Positions 1 through 19,870 of a DNA stretch of 19,870 nt are shown here, piece after piece. The first letter of the stretch is position 1. Every line of letters starts with the position of its first letter. The notes under the pieces were generated by a model. That model was not told where the DNA came from and made no database searches. It worked only from the letters and a program-made list of their open reading frames with translations. The position numbers and the translations under genes are program-made. Source of the stretch: a virus. The stretch lies in the UHGV virus genome UHGV-0196841, one strand, 5' to 3'.

Positions 1-876
1 GTGACCTGACTGGATTGGGAAAGAAACGCCATCGTTCCAGCGTGTGGAGGAACAGGCGTTATAGGTGGTAGGCCCTTTGCAGCCCATTTTGTACAGGCAG
101 TAACCTTTGCGGGCAGCGTCATCGTCCCAACTCTGCACGAACTCTCCGGCGTCAAAGTGAGCGCGGCGATAACATTTATCGTGGATTCGCTGACCATAGA
201 ACATCAATGGACGGCCCATTCTGTCGACATCCGGCAGACGATCAAAGGTCACCATGTAAGTAATGATGGCGCTCATCACATCCGGGATTGGCGGGCAGCC
301 TGGCACTTTAATGATCGGTTTGTCGGTAATGACTTTATCGATAGGCGTTGCCTGCGTCGGGTTAGGTCGCGCGGCTTGTACACAGCCCCAGGACGCACAG
401 GTGCCCCAGGCAATAATTGCACTGGCTCCGGCAGCGGCACGTTTGAGTTTCTCAATAAACGGTCGACCGCTGCTGATACAAAACATCCCCTGCTCGCCCA
501 GCGGCGGATTACCTTCTACTGCGAGGATATATTTGCCATTGTATTGCGTGATGATGTCTTCAAAGACTTCTTCCGCCTGGGTTCCGGCGGCAGCCATCAA
601 AGTATCGTCGTAATCGAGGGAAATCAGGGAAAGGATGACGTCCTTCGCCAGTGGGTGAGCGGAGCGGATAAAAGATTCGGTACAGCAGGTGCATTCCAGA
701 CCGTGGATCCACACCACCGGAATGCGGGGTTTGTTCTCCAGCGCCCAGGCAATCTTTGGTGCCATCCCCGCGCCTAATCCCAGCGACGTTGCAGCCAGAC
801 TGCAATATTTGAGAAAGCTGCGCCGGGTAACGCCCTGACGCCGCATGGCCTGGTAAAATGTTTCCTCGTTATTCAT
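1..876 (-). CDS. hyaA: [NiFe] hydrogenase-1 small subunit, N-terminal 292 codons (3' end lies beyond window start)
   Basis: Reverse-complement translation from ATG at 876 reads [65 protein letters not shown]..., with a twin-arginine (Tat) signal motif (TRRSFLK) and Cys-rich FeS-cluster motifs typical of hydrogenase small subunits. Frame stays open to position 1. AAGGAG lies upstream of the ATG. Absent from the ORF track because no stop codon falls inside the window. Confidence 0.9.
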
Positions 877-2258: not shown

Positions 2259-3368
2259 TTAACCTGATACAGATCGCCATGCACCATTAATATAAATCTG
2301 AGCCTGTTTGTAATACACGCCACCGATATTGTCTGCAGAGTTACGGCCAGTATCCTGAACATTAATGCCTGACAAAACACAACCAGAAGGTGCTCGAAAC
2401 GTCCAGCTGTGCTCGTTCCCGCCCGGGTTGTAAAACACCTCACTGGTATACTGAAAATTCTGTACGCCACCTGTTTTGGTCTGGTAGCGGGCATCGAAGT
2501 TTCCGTAGTCTGACGGTATAACCTGACGCCCGCATCGCCAGTTTCCCGCATCATCCATATACGCCTGACCGTCCGTACCATTATCCGTACGGCTATTATT
2601 TATCATGTAAATGCCAAACTGCTTATTCCCAAGACCAGCCAGGAAATACTTTCTGTCTGCATGATCCTGACGCAGAAGCGCCTGAGCAGCATCAGTATTT
2701 ATCCTGTTTTTCCCGAAAATAACGTTGTTGTCACGCATCTGAATCCACGTTCCGTTACTGCTGTTAATCGCAAAACGGCCTGCAAATACATCTTCTGTAA
2801 CATCCAGACCGTGTCCCATAGTTATGCGACCGGTCCTGAGATTAAGCGTAAAGGGGCGTAGCGGCCCAATATCACCACTCTCGCCCTGATTTTCCCGGGT
2901 AGGAATGAGGTGCAGACACTCTTCCGAACGACGAAAAATCAGACCAAAGGCTTCGTTGAAAATCCTCAGTGCATTAACACCACGGATTTTCAGCTCCCCG
3001 GTCATGGTGTCTCCATCACGCTGAACGGCATTTTTTGCCTTATCCACCGTGGGTTTTAATCCGAGGTTTTCAACAGCCTCATCACTGTCTTCGACATCCG
3101 AAAGATTATTTTTTATCAGCAATGCCTCTTCGTTAATTGCACCGCCCACCAGTAATAATATGGCTTTATATAACTGGTCGTGTTCCTCTTTATTCAGTTC
3201 TATCCCGGCCTTCTCAATGACACCACAGATTTCCTCCTGAAGGGCATCCCACATGGCACTGTTCAGCCAGGTGGCATGACGCCCTGTACGAATATTCCCG
3301 TCAGTAAATCCGTTCTTGCCCGGGCCAAATTTATCTTTAACTGCTGTCGGAGTGTCAATTCTGTGCAT
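2259..3368 (-). CDS. Tail fibre protein, distal/receptor-binding part (P2 gpH C-terminal-like)
   Basis: 369 aa. ATG at 3368 with GGGAGG 6 nt upstream. Segments AVQRDGDTMTGEL, SDYGNFDARY and the C-terminal AQIYINGAWRSV resemble the corresponding parts of P2 gpH-type fibres as I recall them. Followed directly by tfa. Confidence 0.8.
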   Translation of the reverse strand: MHRIDTPTAVKDKFGPGKNGFTDGNIRTGRHATWLNSAMWDALQEEICGVIEKAGIELNKEEHDQLYKAILLLVGGAINEEALLIKNNLSDVEDSDEAVENLGLKPTVDKAKNAVQRDGDTMTGELKIRGVNALRIFNEAFGLIFRRSEECLHLIPTRENQGESGDIGPLRPFTLNLRTGRITMGHGLDVTEDVFAGRFAINSSNGTWIQMRDNNVIFGKNRINTDAAQALLRQDHADRKYFLAGLGNKQFGIYMINNSRTDNGTDGQAYMDDAGNWRCGRQVIPSDYGNFDARYQTKTGGVQNFQYTSEVFYNPGGNEHSWTFRAPSGCVLSGINVQDTGRNSADNIGGVYYKQAQIYINGAWRSVSG

Positions 3369-3398
3369 ATTAAACCTCCCGTGAATGAAATATCAGAA

Positions 3399-4448
3399 TT
3401 ATGTCCTTGCCTGATTAAACAATTCCGCTGTGAAAGTCAGTTCACCCTTTGTGAAAGGCGTTTCTCCGCCTGGCTGGGCCATAAAACTCTGTGAGACAGT
3501 CGTCCAGCTGTTTGTGTCGCTTTGTACGCCATTCTCTGTAATCGTTGCACCTGCATGGCTGCCATTTTTCACTTTCCAGGCCAGGCAGTTATTGGGGGCA
3601 TCAGCACCGCGGTAAGTGACCGAGGCCATAACAGCCACAACATCACTGTTGCTGTTATCCACCGCATCAAACGTGGCCTGTGCTGCATTCAGGGACGGCG
3701 AGAGCATCAGATATCCGGCCTCGCTGTCAGAGGTGTTCAGCCCCGTGACAATATCTTTATTCAGTGAGTTTTTGGCGCTTCCACCGGTAAATGCCGTTAC
3801 CGGGCTGTATCTGACCTCAATGCTTCCGAGCAGGGCGGGTTCCGCGCTGTTATTTTTTCCGTATGCCACTGTTCCACAGTACATATCACCCAGCATTAAC
3901 GTGCCGGATGCACCCGATGAAAAAATATTGTCACCACTACCAATACTCACCTGAATTTTGTCAGTCCGGTCATCTGATACATAAAACGATGCATTTCCAA
4001 CTAATGAGCGGTTGCAGTACAGACTGGCTGAGACATAGCCGTTTTCGTTTCGCGTTGCGAAAATTTCATAGTAATAACTGGCTGCTTCATCAGGATACGG
4101 GGTTGTAAATGAATAGCCATTAATCCTGATGTGGGATGGCGAAGATGAATATTTCTTTCCCGCACTTAATGTCAGACGAAATCCCAGCTGTACAGCTGAG
4201 GATTTTAAGTCCGGAAGTGTGCTGTACAGTGTGACATATGAGGGTGTCGTAAAAATCAGCCCCGTTCTTTCTACAGTATTTACGGCCTGAGTGCCACGAC
4301 AGACGGATGTTACAGAACCGGACATATCATTGATAAGCGTGACACCGTTTTCGTTCAGTGCTGAAATAATATTTGTTGAATAATAGTTCTCGCACAATCC
4401 CTCATTCGCCGGAATTTGTCGAAAACTTTCGAGTTTAATAATATTCAA
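3399..4448 (-). CDS. Hypothetical protein, no recognisable family; possible tail fibre proximal part or accessory receptor-binding protein
   Basis: 349-aa ORF with apparent TTG start at 4448 and strong AAGGAG about 7 nt upstream; first in-frame ATG is far inside. Ser/Thr/Asn/Gly/Tyr-rich, no signal peptide or TM segment, five Cys. DNA is visibly more AT-rich than the flanking baseplate genes. Lies between the gp48-like gene and the fibre gene. Confidence 0.6.
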   Translation of the reverse strand: MNIIKLESFRQIPANEGLCENYYSTNIISALNENGVTLINDMSGSVTSVCRGTQAVNTVERTGLIFTTPSYVTLYSTLPDLKSSAVQLGFRLTLSAGKKYSSSPSHIRINGYSFTTPYPDEAASYYYEIFATRNENGYVSASLYCNRSLVGNASFYVSDDRTDKIQVSIGSGDNIFSSGASGTLMLGDMYCGTVAYGKNNSAEPALLGSIEVRYSPVTAFTGGSAKNSLNKDIVTGLNTSDSEAGYLMLSPSLNAAQATFDAVDNSNSDVVAVMASVTYRGADAPNNCLAWKVKNGSHAGATITENGVQSDTNSWTTVSQSFMAQPGGETPFTKGELTFTAELFNQART

Positions 4449-7458: not shown

Positions 7459-8513
7459 CAGAAATCCTCCTCAACATTTTTTTTCTTCCTGGCGGTAACA
7501 GGCTCGGGGAGATAAGCATCTGCCGGGCCAACCCGTAATTCAGTCGTCGTGCCCCGGTCGTCCTGGTTATAGGTAACTTCTGCAATCACCAGTTCATCAT
7601 TATCAAAATTATTCAGCGGGTCGAAAACGATGACAGATAACCCCGGACGCCATAACGCGCCACTGCCCTGCCGCCAGCCCTGAACCGTATATGTTGTCTC
7701 ACGGGTAAGCGCAGCCCGTTGGCGCGCTTCAAATTCACAACGGGCCTTACAGGTTGCTGTCGTTGCTGTGCCTGACTGCTGAATCAACAAAGGGCGATAA
7801 CGGGTCACGCCATTGTCCTGAATGGTCTGACGTATTGCGGCAATGGTGGCCTCACCAAAATCATCGTCGTTGCCCGGGCGCTGCCCACTGACCTGATATT
7901 CAGAAAACCGCTCTCTGATGCTTCTTTCCGTGTCACAGGAAAGAATATTCTCTCCCAGCACCAGTGCCGTCGCCGCTTTGCCTGTTCCGGGTTTCCCAAG
8001 AACCAGTCGCCCACATTCATCGTCATAAGCCAGCGTCTGAACCTGCCCCAGCAACCGGTTAAGACAATCGGCAACAGTTTCGCCGTGTTCCGGCTGTGCA
8101 TCAATCACCGCAGTCTGAGGCACGCCAGCATCAACAACAGTGATGCCAAATGGCGCAGCCAGTTCAGTGACTATTCTGAGCAGGTTTTTTCCGCTCTGCT
8201 GGAGTGGCAAAGCAGAGCAATCAACCAGATCGGCTGTTTTGCTTCGCCCGACAATCCCCATACTGACGCTGCTGGCGTCATAACGAAGCGGTAGTGCCTC
8301 CACATATCCGGTGAGCACGGGCTCATCCCCGATAAGCACTTCAACCAGCTCACCATTTTTTATCCGGGGCTGATAATCCCGGCTGCCGGGCCAGCGGGTG
8401 GTAATGGCAACATTAAAATCCCGGGCAATACGGTTAATGCCCGCACTGATACGGACGGATGTCCAGCCGCCCCATTCGCGACCGGAAACCCGAAGTAAAA
8501 CGGTATTATTCAT
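7458..8513 (-). CDS. Tail/baseplate hub protein, Mu gp44 / P2 gpD-like
   Basis: 351 aa. ATG at 8513 overlaps the upstream stop (ATGA). Position between the DNA-circulation-like and gpV-like genes. Confidence 0.75.
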   Translation of the reverse strand: MNNTVLLRVSGREWGGWTSVRISAGINRIARDFNVAITTRWPGSRDYQPRIKNGELVEVLIGDEPVLTGYVEALPLRYDASSVSMGIVGRSKTADLVDCSALPLQQSGKNLLRIVTELAAPFGITVVDAGVPQTAVIDAQPEHGETVADCLNRLLGQVQTLAYDDECGRLVLGKPGTGKAATALVLGENILSCDTERSIRERFSEYQVSGQRPGNDDDFGEATIAAIRQTIQDNGVTRYRPLLIQQSGTATTATCKARCEFEARQRAALTRETTYTVQGWRQGSGALWRPGLSVIVFDPLNNFDNDELVIAEVTYNQDDRGTTTELRVGPADAYLPEPVTARKKKNVEEDF

Positions 8514-9901
8514 CTGACGGGTACCCTTAATGTCCTGACCGGAACAAAGCCCGGGTGGGAGATGGCATTTCGATCCAGGATATCTGTTTCACGGGACGCA
8601 TCGTCGTACCATGACGCAGCCAGAACAAGTGCAGGCAGCACCTCCGCTGGCGTTCGCTCTGCGGTTTCCTCCGTCTGAACCAGACGCGCCTGAATATCCC
8701 GGTTCAGCTCTGTACGTAATGACGTCAGCTGAAAAAACAGCCCGTCGTCCATCGTGCGTCTGAGCTCCTGTTCAATCGCCGCATTCAGCGATTCGCGTAT
8801 GATGGTAAGTTTTTCCCGCGTGGGTGGTTGCGCTGTTTCATTCTGTTCTGTGCTGGCTGCCACGCTGCCAAGCGCCGGATGAGAAACATGAATAATATCG
8901 GACTGACGTTCAGTGGAACCACCAACAGCCACAACCGCCTGCTGATTTTTCACCAGACTTCCGGGTTGCGGCAGTGAAGATACCGCCCTTACAGCCTCGC
9001 TGATTGCCGTCGTCCGGATGACGGCTGCCACCAGATTTGTCTGCTGTTTTTGCCTCACAACCGATGCGGAATCTGTGGGCCACACCGCACGCGGTGCCAG
9101 TCCTGGATCCAGCGTAATACCGGACATTGTTGTTATGGACTGCACCAGATCCTGTGTGTTATCCACCAGTCTGGTTCCGGCCCGCCAGGTATCCTGCAAC
9201 ATATGCACAAAATCACTGGCAACCGACGGAGGCATCAGAATGACGGATAAATCGCCCTGCAGTAGTCTCGCTCCGGCAGAAACAGCCGAATTAACCATTT
9301 TGAAAGCTGTCTGAACGGTTCCCAGCATATCGGTCGTCCGGGCAATCACATCGTTCTGAATAAAGTCCGGCATTCCCGCGAGATCAAAATCGCCGAACAT
9401 GTCTTCAATCAACTCATCCAGGAATACGGACGACTCCTCCAGTTTTCTGGCGGTTGCAGCTCCGGCGACCGGAAATGACAGTTCCCCGCTCTCAACAAAC
9501 TGAAATGAAACCCGGCACATACGGCCTTCAGTGCCGGAGTGAGAAACGGTCACCTGCCCATCAATACAGCCCTGCATTTCACCGAACTGCGGATGGATCA
9601 GCGTCCCCGGCCCGGCGGTTTCAATCGCTGTAATCAGCCTGTCGCGCTGCTCTGCGTAATCATCACCAACGAGATACGCATTAATCGTCAGCCGTCGCGT
9701 GGCACGCCCGAGATCCTCCGTGTACGGTTTGTCACGGTTTGGATATTCATGAACCTGAACGCGGCGTCCGAACGAACCCTCGTCGCTCTCCACCGAAAAC
9801 GGAACGCCGCGAAATGAAGCATCGTAAAGATTATCGCGCCAGGTCGTTCCGGAAGATGAAGAAAACAAAGAGGACAAAGAAGGTAAGGAAGGAAAATCCA
9901 T
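8510..9901 (-). CDS. Mu gp43-like DNA circulation protein (tail protein)
   Basis: 463 aa, ATG at 9901. N-terminal region (WRDNLYDASFRGVPFSVESDEGSFGRRVQVHEYPNRD) matches the DNA-circulation N-terminal domain family as recalled. Immediately follows the tape measure gene. Confidence 0.8.
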   Translation of the reverse strand: MDFPSLPSLSSLFSSSSGTTWRDNLYDASFRGVPFSVESDEGSFGRRVQVHEYPNRDKPYTEDLGRATRRLTINAYLVGDDYAEQRDRLITAIETAGPGTLIHPQFGEMQGCIDGQVTVSHSGTEGRMCRVSFQFVESGELSFPVAGAATARKLEESSVFLDELIEDMFGDFDLAGMPDFIQNDVIARTTDMLGTVQTAFKMVNSAVSAGARLLQGDLSVILMPPSVASDFVHMLQDTWRAGTRLVDNTQDLVQSITTMSGITLDPGLAPRAVWPTDSASVVRQKQQTNLVAAVIRTTAISEAVRAVSSLPQPGSLVKNQQAVVAVGGSTERQSDIIHVSHPALGSVAASTEQNETAQPPTREKLTIIRESLNAAIEQELRRTMDDGLFFQLTSLRTELNRDIQARLVQTEETAERTPAEVLPALVLAASWYDDASRETDILDRNAISHPGFVPVRTLRVPVR

Positions 9902-9916
9902 TCTGATACCCCATTA

Positions 9917-11830
9917 TTAACGCCTGAAAGGTGAATACCCAACGTCATGGGTTATTTTCATAAAGGGATCGCCTGTTTTCGGCAAATCGATAACGCGCAT
10001 TCCCTGTGGCGCATTGTCAAACGTGACTTTGATTTCACCACGTGCTGCCACAGACGATATCGCCGGATTAAGCAAAGGAACATTCGGTTTGTACTGACGC
10101 GGCTGATTAAGGGATGCCTGGTATTCCTCATAATTTTTTCGATTAAAAAACGGGGTCCAGTCAGAGGCCAGATATATGCCATGATCCCTGGCCCAGTTAA
10201 CATCGCCCTCAGGCAGAATTGATTCAAGTGCATTTTCGACGGGCTCCCACATCATAGAAGCCAGCACCCCATATACACCGGCTTTTCCGATAACGCCCCC
10301 GCCTTTACCAAACAATCCGGTAGCGGCAGTGACCTTGCCGAGTGTGCGCATATCCTTCGTCACAATGCTGATTGATTTAGTGACATCGGTGACCCACTTT
10401 GTCGCCATAAAAATGGCGATTGCTTTAAGGATCGTTTCCCATCCCCCCATAGCCTGGGCGGTGCTATCAATGACTTCCCAGACATTTTTAATAACCGGTC
10501 CAACGGTTTCCCAGTTATCAATTATGAGATATGCACCACCGACGAGAAGCGCAATTAATCCCTTTGCCGGCGTCATATTCATCACGCTACCCATGATTTT
10601 TGTTATGCGTGTCAATGTGCCAATCGCCACGCCCATCGTCAGTAATGCCGCACCAGTTTTCGCGATGGTTTTTACGACCTCAGGATTTTCTCTGACAAAC
10701 GTGCGCACTTCTTCCAGAAAAGGCTTCATCTCTTTTATGCCTTCATTGATTGAAGGCAGGAAGGTTTCCCCCAGCGTGGAAGAAATCGCATTGATCTGGT
10801 TCTGCAGCAGCAACAACTGATTTTCCGTCGTCGCGGCACGGGCGGCATATTCTTTCTGCATTGAGCCGCCATACTGCTGCGCATCCGCCACACGATTAAA
10901 GTTGGTTCGCAACAAATCCAGATTCGTGAGTAGAGGCGCGATGGATCCAGAAGATTCCTTGCCGAACAGCTCATTAAGCGCGGCGGCCTGTTTTTCTTTC
11001 GGCACTTTCGCCAGAGAATCCAGTACGTGCAGCATGGCCCCACGGGCGTCTTTCTGCATATCCGCCGCCAGTTTTTTCGGGCTAATGCGCAACGAGCGGA
11101 GCACTTTTTTCTGCGATTTGGTGGCAGAATCCCCCGCTGTCAGCGACAACATAAAATTCTTTATCCCCGTCGCCGCAATTTCTGATTCCACCCCCATTCC
11201 GGCAATGGTTGCCCCCATTGCGGCAATCTCTCCGGAGGCCACACCCGCAACACTGCCTAAAGGGCCAATACGGGTCACAATATCAGAAATCTTTTTCGCA
11301 CTTGCAGGACCGGTATTACCAAGATAGTTAATCTTGTCCGCAAGTCCTGCCACCTCTCCCTGTGTCAGTTTAAAGGCAGTGCGCCACTGTGCCATCATCT
11401 GACCGGATTCTTCTGCCGTGGTGTCAAAAGCCACGCCCATCTTCACGGCATCGTCAGTAAACTGCATCAGCTCGTCACGGGCGATACCAGCCTGACCACC
11501 CGCCGCCACAATTTCGGCGATACCTTCCGCCGACATGGGCAGTTCTGTTGACAGGTCGCGCACCTGCTCCGTCATTGCCTTAAACGCTTCCGGCGTATCC
11601 AGACCATCCACCACTTTCCGGACATCCGCCATTTTTGATTCAAGGGCAATGGCAGATTTGACCGGGAGCGCCAGCGCCCCCAGTACTGCGGTTCCGGCAC
11701 CCGCTGCGCCCAGAGACAGGCTGGCAAACTCCTTTTTAAAGCCTTTCAGCTGGCGCTGCATCCCTTTCAGCGGTGCCGACACCTTATCCACGGCAGTGAT
11801 GATCGCCTTCAGCTGAAAACTGTCAGCCAT
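9917..11830 (-). CDS. Tail tape measure protein
   Basis: 637 aa, ATG at 11830. Largest tail gene, with Ala/Gly-rich hydrophobic central segments, directly downstream of the chaperone and frameshift region. Confidence 0.85.
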   Translation of the reverse strand: MADSFQLKAIITAVDKVSAPLKGMQRQLKGFKKEFASLSLGAAGAGTAVLGALALPVKSAIALESKMADVRKVVDGLDTPEAFKAMTEQVRDLSTELPMSAEGIAEIVAAGGQAGIARDELMQFTDDAVKMGVAFDTTAEESGQMMAQWRTAFKLTQGEVAGLADKINYLGNTGPASAKKISDIVTRIGPLGSVAGVASGEIAAMGATIAGMGVESEIAATGIKNFMLSLTAGDSATKSQKKVLRSLRISPKKLAADMQKDARGAMLHVLDSLAKVPKEKQAAALNELFGKESSGSIAPLLTNLDLLRTNFNRVADAQQYGGSMQKEYAARAATTENQLLLLQNQINAISSTLGETFLPSINEGIKEMKPFLEEVRTFVRENPEVVKTIAKTGAALLTMGVAIGTLTRITKIMGSVMNMTPAKGLIALLVGGAYLIIDNWETVGPVIKNVWEVIDSTAQAMGGWETILKAIAIFMATKWVTDVTKSISIVTKDMRTLGKVTAATGLFGKGGGVIGKAGVYGVLASMMWEPVENALESILPEGDVNWARDHGIYLASDWTPFFNRKNYEEYQASLNQPRQYKPNVPLLNPAISSVAARGEIKVTFDNAPQGMRVIDLPKTGDPFMKITHDVGYSPFRR

Positions 11831-12244
11831 GCTTCATCTCCTCGTTAATGCGGACGGCCTCGGCTTCCAGTTCTGTAAACTGCGAAATAGCCACCCGTCG
11901 CAGCTCCAGTGGATTCAGTTTCCAGAACCAGGCAACATTGTAGAGTCGTTTCCGGAGGTGCTTCCCGTCTCCGACTGGGTAAAAAAACGCAGGATCTGCA
12001 TGCTGGTCTTAAAAATATCCAGTTTTGCCATCTGCGCCGCCGATGAACGCGGGATCCCCGCCAGCAACGGGATATATTTCAGTGCCACCTGGCTGTCCAG
12101 TTTAATACTGCCTTCACCGGAAATAATGAAAGGAAAACCCAGCGCCTCGATTTCGTCATACGTGGGCTCGCGCAACTCCAGCACATGCAGCATTTCGTTA
12201 TGCGCTGTCACCGGTTTTTTTAAAACAATTTCTGTAACGTTCAT
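11823..12244 (-). CDS. Predicted -1 frameshift fusion product of the tail assembly chaperone (about 142 aa: first 88 codons in frame 0, then a 54-codon -1 frame extension ending at a TGA that overlaps the tape measure start)
   Basis: A slippery heptamer U_UUU_UUU lies on the minus strand (plus-strand A7 at 11981-11987) in the correct phase (codons CGU-UUU-UUU). The -1 frame is open from the slip site to a stop at 11823-11825 (extension YPVGDGKHLRKRLYNVAWFWKLNPLELRRVAISQFTELEAEAVRINEEMKHG), which I translated by hand. Confidence 0.6.
11915..12244 (-). CDS. Tail assembly chaperone (Mu gp41-like), zero-frame product
   Basis: 109 aa. ATG at 12244 overlaps the tube gene stop. Lies between the tube and tape measure genes, the conserved position of the chaperone pair. 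Confidence 0.75.
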   Translation of the reverse strand: MNVTEIVLKKPVTAHNEMLHVLELREPTYDEIEALGFPFIISGEGSIKLDSQVALKYIPLLAGIPRSSAAQMAKLDIFKTSMQILRFFTQSETGSTSGNDSTMLPGSGN

Positions 12245-12600
12245 TACTGATATCCTCCCTCTTCGCCGTGGAATTCAAGATCTGCCGTGCCTTCTTCGGC
12301 ATTATGGTTAGCCTCTCCGTGCAGCCATGCAGCCGAAAGCACATACACCATGCCGTTTGCCAGTTCAGCGGTAATCGTCATCTGGTCTGATGTGGTAATT
12401 TTGTCGACCGGAAAGTTTTTGGGCACTTTAAACGTGCCTTTAACGTAAGGTGACCGCCAGGTCTCCTTGTAATCCACATCCCCTGCCATGCCGACAACAT
12501 CATCCCGGACATTGGTGTTCATCGGCACTTCAATGCCACCTGTCAGCGATAACTGCTGACCATCCACTTTAAAAAAACAGGTTCCGGCGATCTTTGCCAT
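12244..12600 (-). CDS. Tail tube protein (contractile tail)
   Basis: 118 aa. ATG at 12600 overlaps the sheath gene stop (TAATG). Small protein immediately after the sheath gene. Confidence 0.85.
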   Translation of the reverse strand: MAKIAGTCFFKVDGQQLSLTGGIEVPMNTNVRDDVVGMAGDVDYKETWRSPYVKGTFKVPKNFPVDKITTSDQMTITAELANGMVYVLSAAWLHGEANHNAEEGTADLEFHGEEGGYQ

Positions 12601-14096
12601 TATGCTGACTCCTCTGAATACTGAAGACGGAACTGGTTAACCACCGCAAAGACACGTAACTGATTAACATAATCCGGCGGGAACAGCGTATTCAGTCGGT
12701 TCGGGTTATCCGCATCACGCTCAACTATCAGATACTGTTTAAACAGATCGTAATTTTCCACAATACCGGCACGCTCCATCTGACGATATGTCGCCAGAAG
12801 TTCCCCTTTGATAACGGCAGGAGTGACAATCGCCTGCCCCGGACCAAAACGGGTACCATCATTTGCCAGCTTGTGACGTCCGTACTTGCTTGTGATGACC
12901 GATTTCAGTTTGCGAAGAACATATGCACTGGTATGCAGAGTTTCACTGTCCAGATAGCTGTTGTCTGCCACGCCATACGCATTCTTTTTGTAGGTGGTTA
13001 CAGAACGCTGGATCCGCAACGTGCCGCCTTCCACATAAGCCGTCGCCACGCCGTGAGATAAAAGGGTCTGCTGCTCTGTCATGATGAATCGCTTACCTTT
13101 CGGTGCCGGAAGCATCCCCACCAGCTCCCCCGTCTGTGTCGGACGGGCAGGATCATTCCGGATAAATACCGCTTCACGGGCAAGGCGACTGGCAACCAGT
13201 TCATCGACAGGCGACTGGGTTTCTTTTTCGTAACCGGCAAGCGTGATATGTTGCTGATTATGCATATCTCCGGCACCAACCAGCTCTGACAGCGTTCCCA
13301 GTTTTGCGGTATAGACATGCCCGTATAACTGGCGCGCATAACTCCAGCGACCGCTGCTGTCATTCATTTCGGTCATCATCATATTAATGGAGGCGGCATC
13401 GTTGAACGGCAGACCGATAAAATCGAATACCTCATCGCCCATAGCGGCAACAGCGGCGGTAAGATCAGGCGCTCCACTACCTGCAGTTCCGGCTTCCGTC
13501 ACGACCTGAAGTCCCGCAGGCAGAATTTCACCACCACCAGAACCATAATAATTCAGGCAGACAGGTAGCTCGTTACCATACAGCCCCTTATGACGGGCAG
13601 TCAGTGTCACCACACCTGCATCAGATGACGCCGTAAACGGCAGGGTGATAACCCCATTTACCGCTTCCTTAATCGCGGTGGCAACCGCAGTGGCATTATC
13701 GCCATTCACCACAGGCACCTGTACACGGGAGCGTCCGACATACAGACTCAGGGTGCCGCTTTCCTCTGCTTCTCCGGTAACCGTCACCCTGACCGTTGCC
13801 GCCGCCCCTTTGGCTTCCGGTACCGCAATAACATACAGTTCACCGAAAGGATCTGTCTGACGGTATACTTCGACCATACGCGCCAGCTGGCTCCCCGCTC
13901 CACAAATCTGACGGGCATAATCTGCCGACGGCATCAGCACCAGGCTGTTAACCTCAATGGCAGCATCGTTGCCTGCATGCCCAATCAGTAATGCAGGCGC
14001 GCTGGTCACCGCTGTATTTGCCGCAGAATTGTCCATCTCGGCGTAGAACAACGGCACCAGCGTATTCGACGGAACAGCACTAAAACTTATTGTCAT
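12600..14096 (-). CDS. Tail sheath protein
   Basis: 498 aa, ATG at 14096. Size, position before the tube gene and overall sequence character fit myovirus sheath proteins. Confidence 0.9.
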   Translation of the reverse strand: MTISFSAVPSNTLVPLFYAEMDNSAANTAVTSAPALLIGHAGNDAAIEVNSLVLMPSADYARQICGAGSQLARMVEVYRQTDPFGELYVIAVPEAKGAAATVRVTVTGEAEESGTLSLYVGRSRVQVPVVNGDNATAVATAIKEAVNGVITLPFTASSDAGVVTLTARHKGLYGNELPVCLNYYGSGGGEILPAGLQVVTEAGTAGSGAPDLTAAVAAMGDEVFDFIGLPFNDAASINMMMTEMNDSSGRWSYARQLYGHVYTAKLGTLSELVGAGDMHNQQHITLAGYEKETQSPVDELVASRLAREAVFIRNDPARPTQTGELVGMLPAPKGKRFIMTEQQTLLSHGVATAYVEGGTLRIQRSVTTYKKNAYGVADNSYLDSETLHTSAYVLRKLKSVITSKYGRHKLANDGTRFGPGQAIVTPAVIKGELLATYRQMERAGIVENYDLFKQYLIVERDADNPNRLNTLFPPDYVNQLRVFAVVNQFRLQYSEESA

Positions 14097-19399: not shown

Positions 19400-19870
19400 T
19401 TAAAGCGAGCGAATACCAACGCTGACCAGATGCTCAGACAGATCCGGCTCCGGTTCACCGCCATTGACCAGCATCCGGCTCATTGCTGTAAACATCGCAA
19501 CAGGGCCGTCGATTTTGGCTTCCGGCGTGGATTTATTCGGGAAGATATTGTCGTTTTTGTCCGGTTTTACCGTAACGTTAGACATCATCCAGTTCATGAC
19601 CGGATGATTGCTGTGATGGAAACGCCCGGCGTAGACCAGTGATTCCGTTTCCTTCATGGCCTCTGACAGATTGCGGACCGTCTGCGGAACTTCCACCAGC
19701 GGTATGCCTTCTTCAGCCAGCGCCAGACTGAACTGCATTGCGCTCCACGGGTCAAATCCCAGTTCCCTGAGGTTTTCACCGCCAATCCATTCCAGTAAGT
19801 CACTTTTTATCTGAGCATGATCGATAACATCACCATCCGTCAGGATGAGCTTATCCATCTCCGCCCACTT
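19400..19870 (-). CDS. Terminase large subunit, C-terminal part (5' end beyond window end)
   Basis: Reading frame is open from the window edge ([14 protein letters not shown]...) to a stop at 19400. Motifs such as [16 protein letters not shown] and NWMMSNVTV fit the C-terminal nuclease region of large terminases. Position upstream of portal. Confidence 0.85.

Follow-up and report, generated by a model that had tools for sequence, protein, structure and literature searches.

The λ G/GT arrangement and the conserved frameshift of tail chaperone genes are reportedly the subject of Levin 1993 and of Xu, Hendrix & Duda 2004, 2013 and 2014, and the −1 frameshift of phage P2 is said to have been tested experimentally by Christie et al. 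in 2002. The P2 RefSeq record carries a joined CDS together with a 'site of -1 translational frameshift' at GG[T TTT TTG]. Frameshifts of the G/GT type are conserved across a wide range of long-tailed dsDNA phages, P2 and, with a −2 shift, Mu among them (PMC5009743, PMC2628397). In λ-type systems the longer product arises from a low level of −1 slippage at a heptamer that does not need a strong stimulatory structure, and the arrangement presumably serves to keep the chaperone that binds the tape measure in a fixed ratio to a fusion able to bind the tube subunit too (PMC5009743). In Mu the extension is reportedly read through the −2 (+1 frame) shift (PMC5009743, PMC2628397), and our check of the Mu sequence placed the extension in the +1 frame relative to Mup41.

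Against this background we evaluated a window of 19,870 nucleotides (the whole stretch of UHGV-0196841 that was analysed), which is a phiP27-like E. coli prophage. Its tail module is of the Mu/SfV type, lies on the minus strand throughout and runs sheath, tube, chaperone, tape measure, with the presence of a sheath gene making it a contractile-tail (myovirus-type) module. The features that matter here are as follows.

12600..14096, minus strand: tail sheath gene, 498 aa (Pfam Phage_sheath_1, Phage_sheath_1C and Phage_sheath_domII)
12244..12600, minus strand: tail tube gene, 118 aa (Pfam PF10618 Tail_tube, E 7.6e-34)
11915..12244, minus strand: tail assembly chaperone ORF, 109 aa, ATG at 12244 (ORF list and translation)
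11981..11987, minus strand: slippery heptamer U_UUU_UUU, in phase (cgU UUU UUU acc), the proposed −1 slip site
11823..11981, minus strand: −1 frame extension, 52 codons (YPVGDGK...EEMKHG) plus TGA (translation)
11838..11843, minus strand: GAGGAG, likely Shine-Dalgarno for the tape measure gene (read from sequence, function predicted)
9917..11830, minus strand: tape measure gene, 637 aa (Pfam PF10145 PhageMin_Tail, E 3e-44)

A sequence-only reading of this DNA had proposed a G/GT-type arrangement, and the locus bears this out through its gene order, its PF10109 chaperone, an invariant heptamer, a conserved extension that lacks a start of its own, and an overlap of 8 or 11 nt with the tape measure gene. 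By coordinates and Pfam assignments the chaperone sits between tube and tape measure, with the tube stop and chaperone start overlapping as TAATG, and the tape measure start in the window is the one given by PGAP and RefSeq in relatives. The likeness to λ lies in a pair of overlapping ORFs that separate the major tail/tube gene from the tape measure gene; λ, however, is a siphovirus with the slip site G_GGA_AAG, whereas the window tube is surrounded by a sheath, and λ proteins have no detectable sequence similarity to those of the window. Likeness to P2 goes further, as both have a contractile tail, the order sheath, tube, chaperone, tape measure, an N-terminal PF10109 domain in the chaperone (E in P2), and a slip site (GG[T TTT TTG] in P2, CG[T TTT TTT] here) in phase on two Phe/Leu codons after a wobble T. 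P2 E+E' also overlaps gene T by 8 nt, just as the window fusion overlaps its tape measure gene. The two differ in the last base of the heptamer (G in P2, T here), in extension length (57 versus 52 codons) and in the zero-frame tail after the site (6 versus 21 codons), and the P2 frameshift is annotated as −1 translational whereas ours is read from sequence. Alignment of the fusion profile with P2 E+E' (hhalign) was colinear with the slip sites in register, at a probability of 3%, so homology between the two extensions is not established.

Two further phages complete the comparison. The remaining tail and baseplate genes of the window are Mu-like (sheath, tube, DNA circularisation protein N and gp44/45/47-like baseplate proteins), and Mu gp41 (Mup41) scores 24.7 bits on PF10109, just under the cutoff of 25, while belonging primarily to PF23746 Gp41_Mu; the window site is nonetheless a classical −1 heptamer like that of P2 and unlike that of Mu. 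The closest sequenced phage outgroup with the same module is SfV, whose orf13 (with its SfI/SfII equivalents) lies in a module with a tube gene of about 79% nucleotide identity. Its predicted fusion aligns with ours over the full length at 38% identity and has an in-phase GG[T TTT TTC] and a −1 extension that ends ACACATGGCTGA, 8 nt into the tape measure gene; the SfV heptamer differs in ending in C and is followed by a zero-frame tail of only 3 codons, and its frameshift likewise goes unannotated in its record.

The zero-frame ORF is the equivalent of λ gpG and P2 gpE. Its protein matched Pfam PF10109 Phage_TAC_7 (the P2 gpE / Mu gp41 family) at 29.9 bits against a curated gathering threshold of 25 bits, the fusion scored 29.3 bits, and all 10 members of a chaperone fusion alignment matched the family (best E 2.5e-15). 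The same protein matched phrog_166 'tail protein' (E 1.5e-27), and for identical E. coli prophages PGAP gives it the name 'phage tail assembly protein'. An AlphaFold model reached a pLDDT of about 75-93 over residues 1-88, and Foldseek against BFVD returned predicted tape-measure/tail assembly chaperones as modest best matches (best E 4.7e-4), a predicted-structure comparison that supports the fold of the N domain only. Foldseek of the model against PDB gave no significant match, a PDB sequence search with the fusion profile gave none at E <= 1, and NCBIfam assigned no family to either the fusion or P2 E+E'. An antisense ORF of 160 aa at 11829-12311 on the plus strand is spurious, its open length dropping to 38-132 codons in other lineages.

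Turning to the slip site, the plus-strand A7 is a minus-strand T7, and position 11987 is a third codon position, so that the zero frame reads CG[T TTT TTT] ACC and the run is a true X_XXY_YYZ heptamer, as the sequence-only reading had stated from sequence and phase. Runs of this kind are not rare: the window has 9 T7/A7 where 4.75 +/- 3.06 are expected, a count reached in 26 of 200 shuffles. By itself the heptamer is no more than chance, and its significance comes from its phase, its position and its conservation in relatives. The tail tube gene has an in-phase T7 of its own, which exemplifies how an unselected heptamer behaves, as it is replaced by TAT TTC in other lineages. Three other in-phase heptamers within the chaperone ORF (T_TTA_AAA, A_AAA_AAA and G_GGT_TTT) were discarded; after each the −1 frame closes within 5-6 codons, and none is conserved.

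Going 5' from the slip site, the −1 frame is closed after 27 nt. In the other direction it stays open, as had been noted earlier, for 54 sense codons counted from the re-paired TTT at 11987 (two Phe and 52 new ones) up to a TGA at 11825-11823, giving by translation the junction ...LRFF-YPVGDGK... proposed at the outset and a fusion of 140 aa made of residues 1-88 and the extension, which is the equivalent of λ T and P2 E'. The tape measure ATG lies at 11830-11828 and the TGA 2 nt past it (ATGGCTGA), so the fusion and tape measure ORFs overlap by 8 nt. This slightly corrects the earlier claim that the TGA overlaps the tape measure ATG, a triplet of which it is clear.

To place the site among relatives, we compared 100 related loci that comprised 43 unique sequence contexts from at least 8 genera and came from E. 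coli, Shigella, Pantoea, Mixta, Buttiauxella, Mangrovibacter, Leclercia, Erwinia and IMG/VR contigs. The in-phase T7 was invariant (100/100 loci) and, where the zero-frame stop was intact, preceded it by 31-70 nt, the sole exception being a locus with a downstream indel (L048) where the distance was 163 nt. The codon before the heptamer was CGT, AAT, GGT or AGT (R, N, G or S), its wobble base being T throughout, and every sequence of the protein alignment has FF. Loss of the open −1 frame in close relatives, which the sequence-only reading had named as evidence that would count against it, is not what these loci display: the frame was open for 51-57 codons in 99 of the 100, and the claim survives. 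Across unique loci its overlap with the tape measure gene was 8 nt, except in two lineages with 11 nt.

Selection on the extension is visible in the same alignments. Between the zero-frame stop and the tape measure ATG, none of 35 unique sequences had a stop in the −1 frame, whereas the other two frames always did, and peptide identity was 0.81 in the −1 frame versus 0.50 and 0.48 in the others. This 84-nt stretch, annotated as intergenic or non-coding, had entropies of 0.29/0.18/0.99 by −1-frame codon position, a pattern that resembles the flanking bona fide genes. The GAGGAG motif sits 7 nt 5' of the tape measure ATG within the extension codons ..NEEM.. and may raise nucleotide conservation there, and we therefore repeated the measurement without the last 8 codons of the extension, which gave 0.38/0.23/1.09. 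These data show purifying selection on the −1 peptide.

Taken with gene order and the comparison with known systems, the sequences make it highly probable that a programmed −1 ribosomal frameshift yields a fusion of chaperone and extension. Most ribosomes would stay in the zero frame and make the 109-aa chaperone, while a minority would slip with the Phe codons UUU UUU in the P and A sites, where both tRNA-Phe could shift back one base onto U_UUU_UU with perfect re-pairing. Slipped ribosomes would then read the 52 −1 codons and finish the 140-aa fusion 8 nt inside the tape measure gene. If λ G/GT and P2 E/E+E' are a guide, the N-terminal domain common to both products would coat the tape measure protein, the C-terminal domain encoded in the −1 frame would bring in the tail tube protein, and the frequency of slipping would fix the short:long ratio required for tail assembly. 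On the same precedent, tail assembly would need both forms, and virions would contain neither.

A downstream stimulatory RNA structure had been raised by the sequence-only reading as a point for inspection, and none emerged from folds, alignment consensus, a hairpin test or Rfam. Single-sequence folds downstream gave z of -0.95 and -1.5, the RNAalifold consensus reached -2.07 kcal/mol with just 4 trivial pairs, and Rfam had no match. A candidate 5-bp CGGAG/CUCCG hairpin 7 nt downstream had no covariation and one pair broken in 12 of 18 sequences, and the 15 nt upstream of the heptamer held no Shine-Dalgarno-like motif. The site is thus unlike stimulated −1 cassettes of the dnaX or IS type, in which a conserved, stable hairpin or pseudoknot stands 5-9 nt downstream, an SD-like element lies upstream, or both. 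In synthetic constructs in E. coli, U_UUU_UUU is less shift-prone than A_AAA_AAG (PMC5009743). Slippage here, with no stimulatory structure, is probably a few per cent efficient.

The same 140-aa fusion could come from transcriptional slippage, in which RNA polymerase adds one U at T7, alone or alongside the ribosome; we regard this as unlikely. An inserted U gives exactly R-F-F-Y-P-V, so sequence and mass spectrometry cannot separate the two mechanisms, and the site is a pure homopolymer kept as T7 in every locus, with alleles that differ in tract length present in databases (T5, in L105-L108). Bacterial RNA polymerase, however, is described as slipping efficiently on runs of ~9 A or T, which match the 9-10 bp hybrid (PMC5009743), whereas this run is 7; programmed transcriptional slippage (T. 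thermophilus dnaX, Shigella mxiE/spa) calls for ~9 A/T, or fewer with a stimulatory context, and the window site falls outside that description. The homologous runs in SfV (T6C) and P2 (T6G) have just 6 T, and even so the in-phase X_XXY_YYZ and the ORF geometry are both kept; the P2 site is annotated as translational, and the seventh T is also accounted for by the invariant −1-frame Tyr codon TAC.

Translation of the −1 region from its own start as a separate protein of ~50 aa, with no frameshift at all, would also explain why the region is clearly under protein-coding selection. It matches phrog_32181 and phrog_11318, both PHROG families of unknown function, which suggests that the region is sometimes called as its own ORF, and the window does hold a −1-frame GTG at ..RR[V]AIS.... 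We nevertheless judge such a gene very improbable: between the upstream −1 stop and the slip site no lineage has an ATG, GTG or TTG in this frame, other lineages have T, A, S, G, I or E codons in place of the internal GTG, conservation of the peptide begins right at the heptamer (an invariant Y, then G.G..LR.R), and natural contiguous ORFs that match the whole fusion (P0006, P0010) link the N domain to the −1 peptide. Chance or decay, meaning a coincidental heptamer and open frame or else one long ORF turned into a frameshifted pseudogene or misread in sequencing, is scarcely credible and already contradicted by the comparative data, for although T7/A7 runs are unenriched in the window, the tube gene has an in-phase T7 of no apparent function, 54-codon open stretches are not rare and some database alleles are single fused ORFs, the two-frame layout with T7 is retained across all the loci, genera and contexts compared, the zero-frame stop and the −1 frame with its coding periodicity are both maintained, the tube-gene T7 is not kept, and the fused alleles (the T5 tracts and a second, a downstream indel in S. 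flexneri on 661 contigs) are rare, lineage-restricted indels.

With the programmed −1 frameshift as the preferred reading, the site is a real, unannotated member of the known G/GT (P2 E/E') frameshift class, and its arrangement is ordinary and well known. The extension is E'/T-like by position, yet it is outside the PF06528 family: it matched no Pfam family, PF06528 Phage_P2_GpE gave no match to it even at E <= 10 or to 10 fusions at E <= 1, and in the same library this model scored P2's own E' at 76.3 bits. The AlphaFold model draws helices in the C-terminal extension at a pLDDT of 46-54, which is too low for interpretation. It is unlikely that the −1 extension in this lineage of Enterobacterales forms a distinct tube-recruiting domain family, with no detectable relation to the P2 E' or λ T domains, behind a stimulator-free T7, possibly serving as a mutational or transcriptional switch, with the fused alleles a tolerated or selected change in ratio; if so, the T5 and S. 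flexneri indel alleles would represent an altered short:long ratio rather than decay or sequencing error.

Searches of the open-access literature turned up no description of this frameshift in phiP27, in SfV or at Mu-like T7 sites, and accessions of this phage lineage are absent from the PRFect supplement. The site leaves the understanding of the mechanism unchanged, but adds to the tail-chaperone frameshifts a clean, well-conserved U_UUU_UUU case that lacks a stimulatory structure and could help in training frameshift predictors, and it indicates that Mu-like tail modules can use a P2-type −1 site instead of the −2 shift reported for Mu. Its main value is an annotation fix, in that the 84-nt 'intergenic' stretch of phiP27, related phages and the E. 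coli/Shigella prophage records examined is coding, so that protein catalogues lack a predicted tail assembly protein of 140 aa; PGAP and phage RefSeq list only the 109-aa form. As had been anticipated of gene callers, the fusion is unannotated in phiP27, vB_EcoM-720R4, SfV and the RefSeq/PGAP E. coli records examined. At the peptide level the two predicted products are distinct, the tryptic peptide FFTQSETGSTSGNDSTMLPGSGN being the zero-frame C-terminus and FFYPVGDGK the fusion junction.

The slip site under study, a minus-strand T_TTT_TTT (T7), lies in the tail assembly chaperone ORF of a contractile-tail module arranged as follows, according to the ORF list and Pfam scans.

12600-14096, minus strand: tail sheath (Pfam Phage_sheath domains)
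12244-12600, minus strand: tail tube (PF10618)
11915-12244, minus strand: 109-aa chaperone ORF (PF10109 Phage_TAC_7, 'tail assembly chaperone proteins E, or 41 or 14')
9917-11830, minus strand: tape measure protein, 637 aa (PF10145)
8510-9901, minus strand: Mu-N-like DNA circularisation protein

Mu-like baseplate genes follow beyond the circularisation gene, and a portal, an S78 prohead protease and an HK97-type capsid gene lie upstream of the tail genes. The window is thus a phiP27-like E. coli prophage whose contractile tail is of Mu/SfV type, since its DNA shares 97% identity with Stx2e phage phiP27 and matches prophages of several ETEC genomes at 100%.

Read from the ATG at 12244, the T7 at 11987-11981 (minus strand) falls as CG[T TTT TTT] ACC, an in-phase X_XXY_YYZ heptamer, so that both the sequence and the phase proposed by the sequence-only reading agree. 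Past it the zero frame continues as ...LRFFTQSETGSTSGNDSTMLPGSGN to its stop, while a -1 slip would make TAC the next codon and open YPVGDGKHLRKRLYNVAWFWKLNPLELRRVAISQFTELEAEAVRINEEMKHG, followed by a stop, which amounts to 52 new codons, or the 54 claimed earlier when both re-read Phe codons are included. The -1 frame ends at a TGA (11825-11823) close to the tape measure ATG (11830-11828; ATGGCTGA); the two ORFs do overlap, by 8 nt, but the TGA and ATG triplets themselves, previously described as overlapping, do not. Taken alone the site is unremarkable, as T7/A7 runs show no enrichment across the window (9 observed against 4.75 +/- 3.06 expected, with 26 of 200 shuffles reaching 9).

Comparison across 101 loci (phiP27, vB_EcoM-720R4, SfV, 4 RefSeq E. 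coli prophages, 14 GTDB genomes and 80 IMG/VR contigs) revealed an in-phase TTTTTTT in 100, the exception being the more distant SfV. Dropping duplicates left 41-43 unique sequence contexts from Escherichia, Shigella, Pantoea, Mixta, Buttiauxella, Mangrovibacter, Leclercia, Erwinia and an unclassified Enterobacteriaceae genome. Loss of the open -1 frame in relatives had been named as evidence against the site; the frame is instead open for 51-57 codons in 99 of the 100 loci with T7, and wherever the tape measure gene is intact it ends 8 nt inside that gene (11 nt in two lineages). The distance from T7 to the zero-frame stop is 31-70 nt in relatives, and 163 nt in one locus (L048) owing to a downstream indel. 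Among the chaperone proteins the FF pair is kept without exception, to as low as 53% identity. Since the codon preceding the heptamer varies among CGT, AAT, GGT and AGT (R/N/G/S) while its wobble T stays constant, selection acts here at the nucleotide level, as a slip site would need.

We next consider the stretch from the zero-frame stop to the tape measure ATG, which is intergenic in all records, using mean positional entropy per codon position in 35-51 unique ungapped sequences.

Mean positional entropy at codon positions 1, 2 and 3
Post-stop stretch, -1 frame: 0.29, 0.18, 0.99
Post-stop stretch without its last 8 codons (tape measure RBS overlap), -1 frame: 0.38, 0.23, 1.09
Upstream chaperone coding region: 0.43, 0.19, 0.89
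Tape measure gene start: 0.24, 0.16, 0.86

Stops occur in this stretch in 0 of 35 sequences for the -1 frame and in all 35 for each other frame, and pairwise amino-acid identity averages 0.81 in the -1 frame versus 0.50 and 0.48 in the other two (nucleotide identity, 0.77). These patterns argue that the -1 frame past the zero-frame stop is coding. Between its upstream stop (in the window, 27 nt before the slip site) and the slip site, the -1 frame holds no ATG, GTG or TTG in any lineage, and the sole internal GTG of the window's -1 frame is unconserved among lineages; because of this, the conserved peptide can be expressed only if the frame changes at the heptamer or close to it. We therefore regard a frameshift-dependent fusion as almost certainly encoded and selected for.

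As to how that fusion is made, ribosomal -1 slippage at the chaperone heptamer is very probable, if a step less secure than the fusion itself. On U_UUU_UUU, the P- and A-site tRNA-Phe would both step back one base and re-pair perfectly. The main mechanistic rival, RNA polymerase slipping on the T7 tract, would yield an identical protein, but we rate its likelihood as low because efficient bacterial polymerase slippage is reported at runs of about 9 (PMC5009743), because the homologous SfV (GG[T TTT TTC]) and P2 (GG[T TTT TTG]) sites, with only six T's, preserve both the in-phase heptamer and the geometry, and because the seventh T has an independent reason in an invariant Tyr codon of the -1 frame.

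Ribosomal slippage here seems to come without stimulators. The look for a downstream RNA structure that the sequence-only reading had called for found none: single-sequence folds were ordinary (z -0.95 and -1.5), RNAalifold on 18 diverse sequences returned just a 4-pair element at -2 kcal/mol, and Rfam left the slip region unmatched. A candidate CGGAG/CUCCG hairpin 7 nt downstream was rejected, with 0 compensatory changes and one pair broken in 12 of 18 sequences. No SD-like motif was found before the slip site. For the lambda slip, the slippery sequence alone reportedly suffices (Levin et al. 1993). The absence of stimulators fits a G/GT-type frameshift (named for the lambda tail chaperone pair), which is low-level; in E. 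coli constructs U_UUU_UUU shifted less than A_AAA_AAG, and shifting at P2-type sites is said to exceed that of lambda 2-3 fold (PMC5009743).

The closest annotated precedent is P2, whose RefSeq record gives E (19430-19705), a joined CDS for E+E' marked with a 'site of -1 translational frameshift', and gene T, whose start precedes the E+E' end by 8 nt. This is the architecture of the window's chaperone, fusion and tape measure, and it bears out the G/GT-type arrangement claimed earlier. A PF10109 match is common to P2 gpE, SfV orf13 and the window chaperone, whose N domain thus belongs to that family. P2 E' matches PF06528, whereas the window's extension has no Pfam family match and falls outside PF06528; it is the equivalent of E'/T by position and presumably in function. 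Profile alignment of the window fusion with P2 E+E' was colinear with the slip sites in register, though statistically weak. In an AlphaFold model residues 1-88 are confident, with a helix terminating exactly at FF, and the extension is helical at low confidence; the best matches in a viral structure library were predicted tape-measure/tail assembly chaperones. By analogy, the two domains of the fusion may divide labour. In Mu the extension is accessed through a -2 shift (PMC5009743, PMC2628397), in agreement with our finding that it lies in the +1 frame; this Mu-like tail module therefore uses the P2-type solution rather than Mu's own.

Natural fused alleles point to the same product. Searching protein databases with the predicted fusion returned contiguous ORFs matching along its full length. 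One (P0006, 137 aa, 78% identity) derives from a T5 tract, found at about position 1750 of four loci (L105-L108) where a vB_EcoM-720R4-type chaperone has T5 for T7 (cgTTTTTac) and the fusion is hard-wired; its carriers are one NCBI genome with intact neighbour genes and 3 SRA assemblies with fragmented ones, and it is either a genuine tract-length mutation or a homopolymer sequencing error. In others (P0001-P0005, the S. flexneri allele, also carried by the IMG/VR locus L048 of S. flexneri VA-6 type), P0004 alone covering 661 contigs, the frames are joined by an indel of 1 nt some 35 nt past T7, and ordinary translation would give only a fusion-like 140-142-aa protein (...FFTQSETGSTSGKRLYNVAWF...) without the short form. 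Because such a loss should, on the lambda precedent, upset tail assembly, the host element is probably a decaying prophage. These fused ORFs are rare, lineage-restricted variants, in part from noisy assemblies, and by accident they unite the same two pieces, confirming the predicted -1 reading frame.

Other in-phase heptamers behave differently. A second T7 in tail tube codons 8-10 (12577-12571, minus strand; TGT TTT TTT AAA) would on a -1 slip run straight into TAA, cutting the tube protein short at 10 residues. It is probably incidental, being confined to phiP27-type sequences (TAT TTC takes its place in other lineages), and serves as a negative control, an unselected heptamer in the same genomes. 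Overlapping T_TTA_AAA and A_AAA_AAA heptamers in chaperone codons 7-10 (12215-12224, minus strand; GTT TTA AAA AAA CCG) might allow slight abortive frameshifting, with the -1 frame shut after 5-6 codons; they occur in close relatives only, and comparison among relatives gave no evident selection.

The feature class is textbook, and the window's site is an unannotated but very well supported member. As the sequence-only reading had anticipated of gene callers, a joined CDS or slippage note is absent from the records of phiP27 (NC_003356), vB_EcoM-720R4, SfV and 4 PGAP-annotated E. coli genomes, and we found no description of a slip site in the phiP27-type lineage in the open-access literature. 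The main value here is corrective annotation. Among PHROGs the extension (11823-11981, minus strand) hits only phrog_32181 (E 3.8e-6) and phrog_11318 (E 1.5e-3), each labelled 'unknown function'. Evidently the -1 frame is predicted in some phage annotations as a small orphan gene of its own, and the two families could be renamed as frameshift extensions of the chaperone.

An antisense 160-aa ATG ORF (11829-12311, plus strand) spans the whole chaperone gene; since other lineages keep it open for just 38-132 codons, it is a side effect of sense-strand coding and no gene. At the tail-fibre end, three sizeable ORFs (369, 349 and 206 aa; 2259-4448, minus strand, and 157-777, plus strand) lack any Pfam hit at E <= 0.001 and are probably tail fibre or host-range proteins plus a plus-strand accessory gene. 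The tape measure protein is 637 aa in the window and 649 aa in phiP27 and strain ETEC6, the latter identical to the window over the chaperone region, and this would be a 12-residue in-frame difference that could slightly change tail length.
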